Positions 36,738-44,839 of a DNA stretch of 64,000 nt are shown here, piece by piece. This stretch comes from a bacterium (GTDB lineage Bacteria > Chloroflexota > Dormibacteria > Aeolococcales > Bog-877), in contig JAKATL010000007.1 of the NCBI GenBank assembly GCA_021827985.1, forward strand, positions 13,764 to 77,763, in the 5' to 3' direction. How positions within the stretch are numbered: position 1 is the stretch's first letter; the number at the start of each line of letters is the position of its first letter. A program made the position numbers and the translations under genes. The notes below the pieces were generated by a model. It searched no databases. It worked only from the letters and a program-made list of their open reading frames with translations, and was not told where the DNA came from.

Positions 36738-37898
36738 ATGACCCGGACGACTCTCGAAAGGCGGCAGCTTCGGCTGCTGGATACCACCCTGCGCGAAGGC
36801 GAGCAGTTCGCGGACGCGCACTTCAGCGCATCACAGCGGAAGGAGCTGGCTCTGGCCCTGGACGCCTTCGGGGTGGACGAGCTGGAGGTCACCTCGCCGG
36901 CGGTCTCCCCCGGGGCGGCCCGGGAGGTGCGCGAGATCATCGCCTTGGGACTTCGGGCCCGAGTGCGGGTGCACCTGCGCTGCCACCCGGCGGACATCGA
37001 GCTGGCGCTGGACGCTGGAGCCACCGGGCTCAACCTCTTCCTCGGGACATCTCCAACCCTTGCCGGCAGCAGCCTGCGCGAGCCGTGGAGCCAGCAGCGG
37101 CTGCGCATCCGCGAGGCGGTGCGCCTGGCTGCAACCTCCGGCGCCTTCGTCCGCTTCAGCGCCGAGGACGCGTTCCGGACTCCCCGCCGGCGGCTGCTTG
37201 CTGCTTTCGACGTCGCGGTGGAGTCGGGCGCCCGGCGCTTGGGGGTGCCCGACACAGTGGGGATCGCCACGCCGGCCATGGTGGGCACCCTGGTCCGCGC
37301 CCTCCGGCGCCGGTATCCCGGCCTAAGCCTGGAGTTCCACGGTCACAACGACACCGGCTGCGCGGTCGCCAACGCCCTGGCCGCGTGGGACGCCGGCGCC
37401 GACTGTCTGGATGTGACCGTGCTTGGCATCGGAGAGCGGGTCGGGATCACCTCGCTGGGGGCCCTCCTGGCCCGGCTCTACACCCTGGATCCCCTGGCCG
37501 TCGCTCGCTACCAGCTGCAGTTGCTGCCGGCGCTGGATGCCCGCGTGGCGGAGCTGACCCGGATGCCGGTCCCTTTCAACCAGCCGCTGACCGCTGCCCA
37601 CGCCTTCACCCACGTGGCGGGGGTCCACAGCAATGCGGTGCTGAGGTCCCCTGCCACCTATGAGGCGATCGACCCCGCGGTGGTCGGTCGCCACCGCTCC
37701 ATCCCCATCGGCTCCCGGCTCACCGGGCGGCACGCGGTCGCCCACCACTTGAGGGAGTCGCTGGGCTGCGACCTCGACACCGACCGGCTTGGGGCCGTCA
37801 CCCGGGCGCTGAAGGAGGCTGCCGAGGATCACCGCTTGGACGGGGACGAGGCCGCCGCCATCCTGGCCACCGCCGCGGGTTCCCCGGGGGAGCGCTGA
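36738..37898 (+). CDS. homocitrate synthase (HMGL-like / IPMS-NifV family)
   Basis: LLDTTLREGEQ (the DxxLRDGEQ-type motif), EFHGHNDTGCAVANALAAWDAGADCLDVTVLGIGERVG (HxH metal site) and HVAGVHSNAV are present. The start is the ATG after the GGAGGCGGAG RBS (MTRTTLERRQL). Confidence 0.85.
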   Translation: MTRTTLERRQLRLLDTTLREGEQFADAHFSASQRKELALALDAFGVDELEVTSPAVSPGAAREVREIIALGLRARVRVHLRCHPADIELALDAGATGLNLFLGTSPTLAGSSLREPWSQQRLRIREAVRLAATSGAFVRFSAEDAFRTPRRRLLAAFDVAVESGARRLGVPDTVGIATPAMVGTLVRALRRRYPGLSLEFHGHNDTGCAVANALAAWDAGADCLDVTVLGIGERVGITSLGALLARLYTLDPLAVARYQLQLLPALDARVAELTRMPVPFNQPLTAAHAFTHVAGVHSNAVLRSPATYEAIDPAVVGRHRSIPIGSRLTGRHAVAHHLRESLGCDLDTDRLGAVTRALKEAAEDHRLDGDEAAAILATAAGSPGER

Positions 37899-37900
37899 CC

Positions 37901-39136
37901 GTGGGCACTCTGATGGAGGAGATCATCGCCGCCCATCTGGGCCGATCCGTGGTGGCGGGGGATACGGTGGTGGTGCCGGTGGACCTTGTGATGAGCCACG
38001 ACACCACCACTCCCCTCGTGGCCGACCAGCTCGCGCGGCTGGGTCGGGGGGTCAAGCACCCCGAGCGCGCGGTGGTGGTCCTGGACCATGTGACCCCAGC
38101 GGCGACGGTGGCGGCCGCCCAGCAGCACCAGCGTTGTAGAGAGTTCGTGGCCGGGCAGCGGATCGGGAGCCTGCTCAGTGACGGCATCTGCCACCAGGTC
38201 CTGCCCGAGCACGGATTGGTGGCTCCCGGTGACATCGTGGTCGGTGCCGACAGCCACACCGTGACGCTCGGTGCCCTGGGAGCGCTGGCAACCGGCATGG
38301 GGTCCACGGATATCGCGGTCGCCTATGCCACCGGCGAGACCTGGCTGCGGGTCCCGGCCACGATCCAGGTCCGGCTGGAGGGCTCGCTGCAGCCGCCTGT
38401 GTCCGCCAAGGACCTGGTCCTCGAGCTGGTGCGCCGCCTCGGCAGCGACGGCGCCCGCTACCAAGCCATCGAGTACACGGGCCCGGGGGCGGCTTCGCTG
38501 CCGATGGGGGACCGCATGACCCTCAGCAACATGGCGGTGGAGATGGGCGCCAAGGCGGGCATCTTCGCCGCCGATGAGGTCACCCTGCGCTGGCTTGACG
38601 GTCGCTCCGACCGGCCGTGCAGGGTTGTGACCGCACGGGACCCCGGGTACTCGCGTTCGGAGGGGATCTCCCTCACCGCCCTGGAGCCGATGGTGGCGCC
38701 ACCCCCTGCGGTGGACAGCGCGCGGCCCGTGCGCGAGCTGGCCGGGCTCGCCGTGGACCAGGTCTTCATCGGGACCTGCACGAATGGCCGCCTGGCCGAC
38801 CTTGCGGTGGCTGCCACCCTGCTGCGGGGTCGCCAGGTGGCGGTGCGGACGGTGGTGGTGCCTGCGTCCCGAGAGGTCTACCTGGAGGCCCTCAGAGCTG
38901 GCTACTTGGAGAGCCTGGTCGCGGCGGGGGTGGCGGTGGAGAGCCCGGGCTGTGGGCCCTGCCTGGGGCGGCACAAGGGGGTGCTCGGCCCCGGGGAACG
39001 GGCGGTCACCACCATGAGCCGGAACTTTCGCGGCCGGATGGGAGACCCCTCCAGTGAGATCTACCTGGTCAGCCCCGCCACAGCCGCCGCCACGGCGTTG
39101 CGGGGGTGCCTGACCGACCCGCGGGAGGTTGTCTGA
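37901..39136 (+). CDS. homoaconitase / 3-isopropylmalate dehydratase large subunit family (aconitase domain)
   Basis: DLVMSHDTT, VVLDHVTPA, GICHQVLPE, VGADSHTVTLGALGALATG, FIGTCTNGRLADL, ESPGCGPCLG and TTMSRNFRGRMG are the Fe-S aconitase-family motifs of the LeuC/HACN type. Confidence 0.85.
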   Translation: MGTLMEEIIAAHLGRSVVAGDTVVVPVDLVMSHDTTTPLVADQLARLGRGVKHPERAVVVLDHVTPAATVAAAQQHQRCREFVAGQRIGSLLSDGICHQVLPEHGLVAPGDIVVGADSHTVTLGALGALATGMGSTDIAVAYATGETWLRVPATIQVRLEGSLQPPVSAKDLVLELVRRLGSDGARYQAIEYTGPGAASLPMGDRMTLSNMAVEMGAKAGIFAADEVTLRWLDGRSDRPCRVVTARDPGYSRSEGISLTALEPMVAPPPAVDSARPVRELAGLAVDQVFIGTCTNGRLADLAVAATLLRGRQVAVRTVVVPASREVYLEALRAGYLESLVAAGVAVESPGCGPCLGRHKGVLGPGERAVTTMSRNFRGRMGDPSSEIYLVSPATAAATALRGCLTDPREVV

Positions 39137-43766: not shown

Positions 43767-43801
43767 GGAGGTCCGCCCACGACGGCCGGGCACGGCAGCT
43801 G

Positions 43802-44839
43802 ATGGTGCTGGCGGGAGACGGGATCGGACCAGAGGTGGTGGGCGCCGCCCTCGAAGTTCTTGACGTTCTCCGGGAGCGGCTGCCCTGGCCGGTGGAGGTC
43901 CACCAGGCCCCTCTCGGGCGGGCCGCCCTCAGAGCCTACGGGGAGACGGCGCCCGCGCATGTGCTCAGGGAGGCGCGCCGAGCGGACGCGGTGCTGGTCG
44001 GCGCGGTGGACACCGTGGGAGCGGTGGCGGACGGCGCCAGTGGACCTTCGGCCATCCTGGTGTTGCGCCGGGCCCTTGGTTGTCACGCGGCCTTGCGGCC
44101 CGTGCGAGGCTGGCCGGGGGTGGCCCACGCCTCGCCGATCCGCACCAGGGCAAGCACCCAGCTCGACCTTCTCTTCGTGCGCGACCTGAGGGGCGGAGCC
44201 TTCGCCGGGCCCCACCGGCGGACCTCCCTTGCGGTCGGGGGAAGGGCCGCCACGGACCGGATGGCCTACACCGAGTCGCAGGTCCGCCGGGTGGCCCAGG
44301 CGGCATTCGCGTGCGCGGGGCAGCGCCGTGGCCAGCTCACCTCCGTTGAGTATGGCCCCGGCTTGGCCACCGGGGCTCTCTGGACAGCGGTGCTGGGTGA
44401 GGTGGCCGTCCAGCATCCGCAGGTCGGATTCCAGCGCATGCGGATCGGGGACTTCTGGCGCCTGCTCCTGCGCCGGCCCCAGGACTTCGACGTGGTGGTG
44501 ACCGAGAATCTGCTTGGTGACATTCTGAGCGATGCGGCTGCGGCCCTGGCCGGGTCGCTGGGGCTGATGCCCTCTGCGAGCCTGGGGCCGCCAGACCGCC
44601 CGGCTCTGTACGAGCCCGTGCATGGCGCCGCGCCACAGCTTGCGGGACAGGGGTCAGCCAATCCATTGGGGGCGATTCTGAGCTTGGCCATGCTCCTCGC
44701 TGACTGGGGCCGGGACGAGGCCGCTGCCGCCATAGAGGTAGCGGTTGCCGCCGCCTTGCGAGCCGGGGTCGCCACCCCCGACATCGGCGGAAGCGCCACC
44801 ACCGCCTCCATGACGGCCAGTGTGCTGGAGCGCCTCTGA
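43802..44839 (+). CDS. homoisocitrate/isocitrate/isopropylmalate dehydrogenase-family enzyme (HICDH in this context)
   Basis: MVLAGDGIGPEVV is the N-terminal motif. VVVTENLLGDILSDAAAALAGSLGLMPSASLG and LYEPVHGAAPQLAGQGSANPLGAILSLAMLL are the beta-decarboxylating dehydrogenase signature. Confidence 0.8.
   Translation: MVLAGDGIGPEVVGAALEVLDVLRERLPWPVEVHQAPLGRAALRAYGETAPAHVLREARRADAVLVGAVDTVGAVADGASGPSAILVLRRALGCHAALRPVRGWPGVAHASPIRTRASTQLDLLFVRDLRGGAFAGPHRRTSLAVGGRAATDRMAYTESQVRRVAQAAFACAGQRRGQLTSVEYGPGLATGALWTAVLGEVAVQHPQVGFQRMRIGDFWRLLLRRPQDFDVVVTENLLGDILSDAAAALAGSLGLMPSASLGPPDRPALYEPVHGAAPQLAGQGSANPLGAILSLAMLLADWGRDEAAAAIEVAVAAALRAGVATPDIGGSATTASMTASVLERL

Follow-up and report, generated by a model that had tools for sequence, protein, structure and literature searches.

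A probable LysW-type lysine operon of Candidatus Dormibacterota with a putative tRNA-Lys T-box leader

The DNA considered here is a stretch of 64,000 nucleotides (nt) from contig JAKATL010000007.1 (assembly GCA_021827985.1), and the term "window" will be used for this whole 64-kb stretch. Its central feature is a block of nine genes at 36738-44839, which probably forms one operon for the synthesis of lysine through alpha-aminoadipate on the carrier protein LysW, under the control of a T-box leader that senses tRNA-Lys. As metabolism, the cluster mainly confirms the LysW/aminoadipate lysine pathway in Candidatus Dormibacterota, an uncultured soil phylum. What it adds is regulatory and evolutionary, and of modest interest: the Lys T-box, the variation of this element among relatives, and a dehydrogenase that appears to derive from LeuB.

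The nine genes and the leader in front of them

The analysis of open reading frames (ORFs) and protein families over the window located nine ORFs at 36738-44839, all co-oriented on the + strand, and on six public contigs that share the locus, gene callers working independently arrived at the identical gene set. A preliminary description of the window, made from the sequence alone, had placed a LysW-type cluster here, and each of its nine genes was recovered at its place, on the + strand. The identities given below are family-level ones, and the upstream aminotransferase is listed first although it lies outside the T-box unit.

35100-36290, +: ArgD-type class-III aminotransferase, candidate for the LysJ step, outside the T-box unit
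36738-37898, +: homocitrate synthase (LysS/HCS), with HMGL-like and HCS_D2 domains (PF00682 and PF22617)
37901-39136, +: large subunit of a homoaconitase-type dehydratase (LysT/HacA-like; PF00330, TIGR01343, TIGR02086)
39136-39687, +: small subunit of the dehydratase (LysU/HacB-like; TIGR02087)
39677-39865, +: LysW, amino-group carrier protein of 62 residues (TIGR01206; PF21344)
39862-40743, +: LysX, ATP-grasp LysW--aminoadipate ligase (TIGR02144)
40743-41780, +, alternative GTG start at 40740: LysY, LysW-aminoadipyl-phosphate reductase of the ArgC family (TIGR01850)
41821-42651, +, alternative GTG start at 41788: LysZ, LysW-aminoadipate kinase (NF010659)
42648-43766, +: LysK, LysW-lysine hydrolase of the M20 family (PF01546; TIGR01902)
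43763-44839, +, alternative ATG start at 43802: beta-decarboxylating dehydrogenase of the Iso_dh family, by sequence a divergent LeuB and by context a putative homoisocitrate dehydrogenase

The carrier itself (MSDDLNPQAGECPECAAVFVLPTGTVVGEILPCPDCAAELEVVALDPPRLALAPEIEEDWGE) has the 62 residues, the CPEC...CPDC zinc ribbon and the C-terminal EDWGE attributed to it earlier, and its start is preceded by the ribosome-binding site AGGAGG. Regarding the junctions, 4-bp overlaps of both GTGA and ATGA type had been described; four GTGA overlaps are present (lysW/lysX, lysX/lysY, lysZ/lysK and lysK/dehydrogenase), those at lysX/lysY and lysK/dehydrogenase being 4 bp long only with the GTG starts, and there is no ATGA overlap. 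The hacA/hacB junction is TGATG with 1 bp in common, hacB and lysW overlap by 11 bp, 2 nt separate the HCS gene from hacA, and 7 or 40 nt separate lysY from lysZ, depending on the start chosen. The G+C content is about 70% throughout the window, and for the leader as well as for the DNA after the last gene, a scan with consensus models reported neither a promoter nor a terminator on the + strand.

The 448 nt between the end of the aminotransferase gene and the HCS start codon hold a T-box leader, which the preliminary description did not mention. Its parts, together with a candidate promoter and the hairpin that follows, are these:

36367-36395, +: candidate promoter, TTGCCT-17 nt-TAGACT, located some 20 nt ahead of the leader; weak, picked by eye
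36415-36682, +: T-box leader RNA (Rfam RF00230; full-length match to model positions 1-219, 58.3 bits)
36507-36509, +: specifier codon AAG (Lys), in the loop GAA-A-AAG-A closed by GAGG/CCUC
36632-36649, +: T-box sequence GAGAGGUGGUACCGCGUG, with the UGGU bulge at 36638-36641
36650-36739, +: long G+C-rich hairpin competing with the antiterminator in the predicted fold, a putative sequestrator
36671-36679, +: 3' strand of the antiterminator, CCCGCCCUC

The match has an E value of 4e-12 locally and of 4.2e-10 when the whole window is compared with all 4227 Rfam families, and it is the sole RNA hit in the 64 kb. The leader includes a Stem I with K-turn, AGUA/GAA S-turn, AGAGAG bulge and distal loop (GGUAGCUGGAAAA), followed by Stems II, IIA/B and III and by the antiterminator, in which the T-box core with its bulge reads GAGAGGUGGUACCGCG. 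To judge from these letters, the UGGU bulge would pair with the NCCA 3' end of a tRNA with discriminator A. The specifier is AAG, and the alternative register, AAA, is also a Lys codon; with 54 AAG against 4 AAA in 13 genes, AAG is the main Lys codon of this organism. Most two-codon families (>85%) favour a specifier that ends in A (PMC7778990), whereas the window uses AAG. As for the candidate promoter, 8 of its 12 positions agree with the consensus and the consensus scan did not report it; two related Dormibacteria loci (L167 and L168; loci are cited by such numbers where they must be told apart) have similar elements at the same place, TTGCGC/TTGCGT-17-TATGGT/TAGGGT.

Conservation of the leader was followed through a metagenome scan for HCS, which gave 80 loci, mapped by tblastn. 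Rfam found T-boxes at the same position in L139 (102.5 bits), L087 (75.3 bits) and L088 (71.1 bits), L087 being a Dormibacteraeota locus whose LysX shares 99.6% of its residues with a named protein, and L167 and L168 carry the leader as well. A profile hidden Markov model built from four leaders (window, L139, L087, L088) then detected more copies, frequently as tandem pairs, upstream of lysW in many clusters of the order lysW-X-Y-Z-J-K-hcs-hacA-hacB-hicdh, with Rfam scores of 84-100 bits (100 in L103, 97.7 and 93 in L118), so that the leaders of L139, L103 and L118 reach the Rfam gathering score of 93; the LysX proteins of these lysW-first clusters share 77-83% identity with entries that bear the label "Chloroflexia bacterium". 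In the alignment of 38 leader copies every specifier is either AAG or AAA, while the base after GAA varies. In the leader alignment, RNAalifold finds compensatory changes at 40 of 49 pairs. For a T-box structure of 52 pairs, 45 show double (compensatory) changes, spread over 12 helices, and 94.5% of the cells are paired, compared with 35-44% in controls with slid partners; none of 500 shuffles reaches the observed values.

These data bear on the possibility that the match is a chance hit in G+C-rich DNA and that the gap holds no regulatory RNA. Its score of 58.3 bits lies below the Rfam gathering score of 93, so that a default scan at gathering thresholds returns nothing and the T-box becomes visible only with E-value thresholds. 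Such a coincidence is nevertheless very improbable in view of the E value over the whole window and all families, the match to the full model with every signature motif, the homologues of 71-102 bits at the same position, and covariation that is strong against both controls. On sequence grounds, then, we regard the element as a genuine, Lys-specific T-box, of which the window copy is a G+C-rich member below the Rfam threshold.

Two side observations concern the distribution of such leaders. Tandem Lys T-boxes, each with its own U-tract terminator, stand upstream of lysW on Chloroflexota-like contigs, namely L101 (2943-3550), L118 (3021-3600), L103 (2793-3389) and others. A weak T-box-like match (nhmmer E value 9e-4, core GGGTGGTATCGCG) occurs at 8628-8873 on the - strand of L001, from an Ignavibacteriales metagenome-assembled genome (MAG), on the strand opposite a LysX homologue.

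Lysine, arginine or leucine

By comparison with solved structures, the carrier module (LysW, LysX, LysZ and LysY) belongs with lysine synthesis rather than with the related arginine branch. LysW passes TIGR01206 (59.4 bits, cut-off 53.2) and scores 50.7 bits against Thermus LysW (3wwl), with which it has the EDWGE end in common. LysX passes TIGR02144 (299, cut-off 275.6), and its solved relatives are 3vpd (276 bits), Thermus LysX 1uc8 (249) and Thermococcus LysX 5k2m (218), as against 146 bits for Sulfolobus ArgX 3vpb and 57 for RimK. LysZ scores 344.8 bits with NF010659, the model for monofunctional [LysW]-aminoadipate kinases (cut-off 223), and is closer to Thermus LysZ 3u6u (235 bits) than to N-acetylglutamate kinases (95). 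LysY passes TIGR01850, the argC family model (283.5, cut-off 233.6), and gives 313 bits with Thermus LysY (2ozp/5eio) versus 151 with ArgC. LysK exceeds the cut-off of its subfamily model TIGR01902 (241.8 over 163.1), and scores 323.3 with the equivalog NF003367, where the cut-off is 363.

The synthase points the same way. HCS scores 296 bits with Thermus HCS and 267 with that of S. pombe, and at most 134 with isopropylmalate and citramalate synthases; with TIGR02146 it reaches 339.6 bits, under the cut-off of 413.6. It retains the residues aligned with Arg12, Glu13, His72 and Arg133 of Thermus HCS, which reportedly, in work attributed to Okada et al. 2010, bind 2-oxoglutarate. The specificity of HCS and LysX had been named earlier as a point on which assignment to the lysine branch should turn, and the lysine-type residues of HCS, together with a LysX nearer to LysX than to ArgX structures, uphold that assignment over the leucine and arginine ones; LysX, LysZ, LysY and HCS are all closest to lysine enzymes, and the leader holds a Lys codon. 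Because its specifier is Lys, the operon is best read as dedicated to lysine rather than arginine, an argument that is independent of the enzymes and needs nothing beyond the sequence.

In Sulfolobus and Thermococcus the LysW machinery is bifunctional, serving both lysine and ornithine/arginine through LysW-aminoadipate and LysW-Glu, and the same could be envisaged here. The only aminotransferase nearby is of ArgD type, LysY passes the argC equivalog model, and no separate argB, argC or argJ was seen within the window. On the other hand, an arginine pathway would hardly be expected under leaders whose specifier is AAG or AAA in all 38 aligned copies; LysZ, which passes the monofunctional model, fails the bifunctional ones (NF010662, Lys/Glu kinase, 170 under 194; another, 109 under 241); LysX is much nearer LysX structures than ArgX; and the cluster has a single LysX with no ArgX paralogue. 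We therefore consider a bifunctional system unlikely, and the dedicated lysine operon remains the preferred reading.

The aminotransferase deserves a closer look, as a "LysJ-like" enzyme next to the his genes had been described. The adjacency to his genes is correct, while the type is not: the protein scores 455.6 bits with the ArgD model NF002874 (cut-off 457) and 265 with the LysJ model NF042418 (cut-off 700), and it gives 379 bits with Thermotoga ArgD 2ord versus 237 with Thermus LysJ 1vef. Its gene, which ends 448 nt before the HCS gene, overlaps the stop codon of a PHP histidinol-phosphatase-like gene (GTGA) and is translationally coupled to hisA and that phosphatase gene; it lies outside the regulated unit because of this overlap and because of its position upstream of the operon's own leader. 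The aminotransferase is absent at this position in L087 and L088, and present in L167 and L168. No candidate for LysN, the aminotransferase that converts 2-oxoadipate to aminoadipate, was found within the window, and the earlier wording of a "complete" pathway is thus too strong, since one aminotransferase is missing from the window and the other is of ArgD type and outside the operon.

HacA passes TIGR01343 (hacA_fam, 512.2 over 385.7) and TIGR02086 (524.5 over 410), and HacB passes TIGR02087 (184.7 over 109), with 166.5 bits in NF010629, the homoaconitase small subunit model (cut-off 229). The substrate loop of HacB, IIPGRYNLTTD, corresponds to ITPGRYNLTKD in P. horikoshii 1v7l, and not to GPYLRTTD in M. 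jannaschii HACN or ARYLVYTK in isopropylmalate isomerase. The P. horikoshii protein is the top solved relative of HacB (150 bits, identical GRYNLT loop); it is archaeal and deposited as an isopropylmalate isomerase small subunit, whereas the Dormibacterota lineage has a separate bacterial-type leuCD.

The dehydrogenase had been called homoisocitrate-type. By sequence it is instead a divergent paralogue of LeuB, with 234 bits to isopropylmalate dehydrogenase and 161 to Thermus homoisocitrate dehydrogenase, although it fails the leuB equivalog TIGR00169 (280.6, cut-off 353.2). A homologue search placed it in a clade of 50-100% identity, named by NCBI [quoted passage not shown], while separate Dormibacterota proteins of 45-50% identity to it are named 3-isopropylmalate dehydrogenase and represent canonical LeuB. 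In two further MAGs of Dormibacteria (L167 and L168), lysK is immediately followed, within the operon, by an orthologue of the window dehydrogenase (62% and 59% identity). A member of the canonical LeuB clade is found within a Dormibacterota operon of the order ilvBNC-(cimA/leuA-like)-leuB-leuA-leuC-leuD, where leuC (491 residues) and leuD (207 residues) are of bacterial type. Since Dormibacterota thus have canonical leucine enzymes elsewhere, the HacAB and the dehydrogenase of the lys cluster would be dedicated paralogues; the dehydrogenase is tentatively assigned as a homoisocitrate dehydrogenase from its context, and the dedication of HacAB to the homoaconitase role from the separate leuCD in the phylum. 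The site of Arg85 in Thermus homoisocitrate dehydrogenase (Leu91 in isopropylmalate dehydrogenase) was also considered as a classifier and set aside as not diagnostic, with Leu in the window protein and Trp in the Thermus-like enzymes of Chloroflexota; Arg85 is not known to be required for the use of homoisocitrate.

The first three genes and the last could be leucine genes, or dual leucine/lysine genes (LeuA, LeuCD, LeuB), that stand beside LysW genes. Among known families the dehydrogenase comes nearest to LeuB, HacB shares its loop with P. horikoshii 1v7l, which is annotated as a small subunit of isopropylmalate isomerase, and the HacA and HacB models that are passed are subfamily-level ones, common to isopropylmalate isomerases and homoaconitases. 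This proposal is nonetheless decidedly improbable, given an HCS at 296 bits to homocitrate synthases versus 134 to isopropylmalate synthases with the residues aligned to His72 and Arg133 kept, a T-box specifier that is Lys and not Leu, a Dormibacterota contig with a canonical ilv-leu operon that has its own leuA, leuB, leuC and leuD, and a dehydrogenase that forms a separate clade and fails the LeuB equivalog.

Homologues of LysW, LysX, LysZ and LysY are also reused in secondary-metabolite clusters, such as the amino-group carrier protein systems of Streptomyces, and the LysX scan of genome contigs did match Streptomyces and Kitasatospora loci, at 27-32% identity. The Streptomyces-type clusters, with tailoring enzymes and no HCS, homoaconitase or LysK, do not match that of the window, in which HCS, HacAB, the dehydrogenase and LysK are present and tailoring enzymes absent. 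The neighbours are housekeeping genes (his, gltBD and amt), the synteny is conserved across Dormibacterota MAGs and the cluster stands under a tRNA-Lys T-box, all of which makes a secondary-metabolite role scarcely credible.

Several observations weigh against the lysine operon as we read it. HCS, HacB, LysK and the dehydrogenase each fall under the cut-offs of their most specific NCBIfam equivalogs, and HacB has the same loop as a P. horikoshii enzyme whose PDB entry calls it the small subunit of a 3-isopropylmalate dehydratase. The dehydrogenase has the hydrophobic pair Ile-Leu where isopropylmalate dehydrogenase has Leu90/Leu91 and Thermus homoisocitrate dehydrogenase has Arg85, so that it may act on 3-isopropylmalate. 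To these may be added the absence of LysN from the window, the ArgD type of the LysJ candidate, and the finding by ARAGORN of no tRNA gene in the window, which leaves no tRNA-Lys anticodon or discriminator to compare with the leader. For the read-out of the leader, discussed below, the support for a sequestrator consists of thermodynamic folding and a single pair that covaries, and the hairpin could instead be a terminator that works independently of a U-tract.

In a different high-GC lineage, a LeuB-type gene lies directly upstream of HCS-hacAB-lysW-lysX (L141, L150, L152, L157 and L159), and that of L157 passes TIGR00169 (398 over 353); this is the second case of a lys cluster with a LeuB-type dehydrogenase beside it. 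In these five clusters nhmmer found no T-box, and neither did Rfam in the two to which it was applied (L141 and L150). The LeuB-like dehydrogenase of the window lends itself to testing whether enzymes have been recruited repeatedly from the family of beta-decarboxylating dehydrogenases.

Proposed pathway, read-out of the leader and known systems

In the pathway that we infer, HCS would condense acetyl-CoA with 2-oxoglutarate, the HacAB-like dehydratase and the LeuB-derived dehydrogenase would carry homocitrate to 2-oxoadipate, and an aminotransferase encoded elsewhere (LysN) would make alpha-aminoadipate. LysX would ligate the latter to the C-terminal Glu of LysW, the carrier-bound intermediate would be phosphorylated by LysZ and reduced by LysY, transamination would fall to an ArgD-type aminotransferase, probably the one encoded just upstream, and LysK would release lysine. 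In the leader, the AAG specifier would read the anticodon of tRNA-Lys, and uncharged tRNA-Lys would stabilise the antiterminator or antisequestrator; without it, the long G+C-rich hairpin would bury the Shine-Dalgarno sequence of the first gene.

The latter step, a translational rather than transcriptional read-out, is suggested by the following features. The hairpin at 36650-36739 has no U-tract. At its 3' base it contains the Shine-Dalgarno sequence GGAGG (36728-36732), which lies 5 nt before the HCS ATG and is paired with CCCC (36657-36660), and its 5' arm includes, in the predicted fold, the 3' strand of the antiterminator. The minimum free energy fold of the window leader has about -80 kcal/mol, with the Shine-Dalgarno paired; a fold constrained to form the antiterminator, with the UGGU bulge left open, has -55.5 kcal/mol and leaves both the Shine-Dalgarno and the ATG unpaired. 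The same hairpin architecture recurs in L087, L088, L167 and L168, with no U-tract in any of the five Dormibacterota leaders. The Shine-Dalgarno is paired in the minimum free energy fold of all five, and enforcing the antiterminator frees it in the window and partly in the relatives. The Chloroflexota-like copies and L139, in contrast, have a terminal hairpin followed by a U-run, as in classical termination. Folding thus suggests translational control in the high-GC Dormibacterota leaders, and the natural variants (tandem or single, with a terminator or an apparent Shine-Dalgarno sequestrator, AAA or AAG) could be used to study how the output of a T-box changes.

The nearest characterised counterpart is the cluster of Thermus thermophilus (hcs-lysT-lysU-lysW-lysX ... 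lysY, lysZ, lysJ, lysK), which has the same enzyme families and the same order of the first five genes, and whose proteins are the best or near-best solved relatives of the HCS, LysW, LysX, LysY and LysZ of the window. It differs in that the window joins lysY, lysZ, lysK and the dehydrogenase gene into one operon, and in that the dehydrogenase here is LeuB-derived, the aminotransferase of ArgD type and the leader a T-box. The Thermus cluster is reportedly controlled by leader-peptide attenuation, in work attributed to Tsubouchi et al. 2005. For Thermus, Deinococcus and five genomes of Chloroflexi, a survey built on RegPrecise has no entry of a Lys T-box (PMC3766115).

Also related are the Chloroflexota-type lysWXYZJK-hcs-hacAB-hicdh clusters (L090-L136 and L161), with the same ten functions and the same family of Lys T-box before the first gene. 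They differ from the window in a permuted order, with the carrier module first, in a lysJ inside the operon, in a Thermus-like homoisocitrate dehydrogenase (205 bits to 3asj), and in T-boxes that are often tandem and have U-tract terminators.

Among Firmicutes, the Lys T-boxes of Bacillus cereus lysK (a class I LysRS) and of the B. halodurans permease BH0807 respond to uncharged tRNA-Lys (PMC2916919, PMC2494555). They have a Lys specifier, as does the window, but control a synthetase or a transporter by termination, whereas the window T-box stands before a biosynthetic alpha-aminoadipate/LysW operon in Dormibacterota and lacks a U-tract. The translational T-boxes of actinobacterial ileS are alike in the high-GC host, the absence of a U-tract terminator and a predicted helix that sequesters the Shine-Dalgarno; their Stem I is shortened (PMC7778990), while that of the window leader is of full length and includes the AG bulge and the distal loop.

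Lys T-boxes are described as very rare: those of lysRS have been reported in four species (PMC2916919), and Lys is among the least common specifiers in TBDB (PMC7778990). The literature searched contained no T-box linked to homocitrate synthase, LysW or aminoadipate, although two key T-box surveys lay outside that search and TBDB may hold entries; it also contained nothing relevant on lysine in Dormibacterota or Dormibacter. It is conceivable, although we would not go as far as an even chance, that this is the first described tRNA-Lys T-box regulon over alpha-aminoadipate/LysW lysine synthesis, in a Chloroflexota-like form (tandem, with terminator) and a Dormibacterota form that would have been converted to a single leader, with a full Stem I and sequestering the ribosome-binding site, and joined to an independently recruited, LeuB-derived homoisocitrate dehydrogenase.

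Lineage, earlier annotation and neighbouring genes

A high-GC, Chloroflexi-like lineage had been surmised for the window, and rightly so, the lineage being the uncultured Candidatus Dormibacterota. An identical LysX is encoded on the NCBI MAG contig DAHWIG010000014.1 (GCA_027345325.1) as well as on several contigs from ENA and Logan, and the nearest named relatives (61-80% identity) are labelled Candidatus Dormibacteraeota or Dormibacteria; the LysX scan of genome contigs returned no Dormibacterota genome, its top matches having 52% identity. The view that the pathway is much less documented in this lineage is true only in part. These very proteins are entered at JGI as "alpha-aminoadipate carrier protein LysW", "homocitrate synthase" and "[LysW]--L-2-aminoadipate ligase"; the NCBI and JGI pipelines have already put the names LysX, LysW and homocitrate synthase on proteins of Dormibacterota and Chloroflexota MAGs, and an earlier paper mentions the LysW pathway for Chloroflexota (PMC8129789). 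The cluster thus represents a known pathway, already visible in the automatic annotation of this lineage, and is ordinary as metabolism. The "F420-type genes" that had been cited for the lineage come down to a single CofH-like radical-SAM ORF (9322-10362, + strand), whose match is confined to the C-terminal ~60% of CofH (positions ~147-368 in a profile of 374) and lies under the CofH cut-offs; an ORF in another frame (9327-10400) overlaps it, and the gene may be frameshifted or truncated.

The his genes upstream have features of their own. At 29957-32257 on the - strand lies a single ORF of 766 amino acids that joins a HisD domain to a class-I/II aminotransferase (HisC-like) domain; it is one gene in the gene calls on six contigs and looks like a hisD-hisC fusion in the his operon. 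Between hisG and the divergent hisA, at 33129-33443 on the - strand, is a gene for a TrpR-related protein of the YerC/YecD family (TIGR02531, 87.7 bits over a cut-off of 42.2). It resembles HisR, the regulator described for his genes of Firmicutes (PMC9413887), and could be the his regulator here.

The genes gltB-gltD-amt, for glutamate synthase and an ammonium transporter, occupy 19240-26760, 10 kb upstream of the lys operon, while in L167 (9284-16962) and L168 (11225-18897) they follow the lys operon directly, on the opposite strand; their placement is a local rearrangement around the lys/his region. Toward the other end of the window, a large serine recombinase (Resolvase, Recombinase and Zn_ribbon_recom domains) is encoded at 50735-52747 on the - strand. 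From there to 64000 the GC content is lower (66-68%) and the ORFs are mostly without a Pfam match, with one weak match to subtilase, and 50735-64000 is probably an integrated mobile element.

Two further details come from related contigs. A strain variant, L083, has an insertion of 112 nt just after the dehydrogenase gene (14979-15090 in L083, at 44840 in the window), bounded by a direct repeat of ~27 nt (GGCCGCCCTCTCGGGCGCCGGGGCGG). On the related Dormibacterota contig L088, domains of a group II intron (RF02003, 84.7 bits; RF00029, 50.1 bits) are found at 1184-1906, upstream of the his/lys region.

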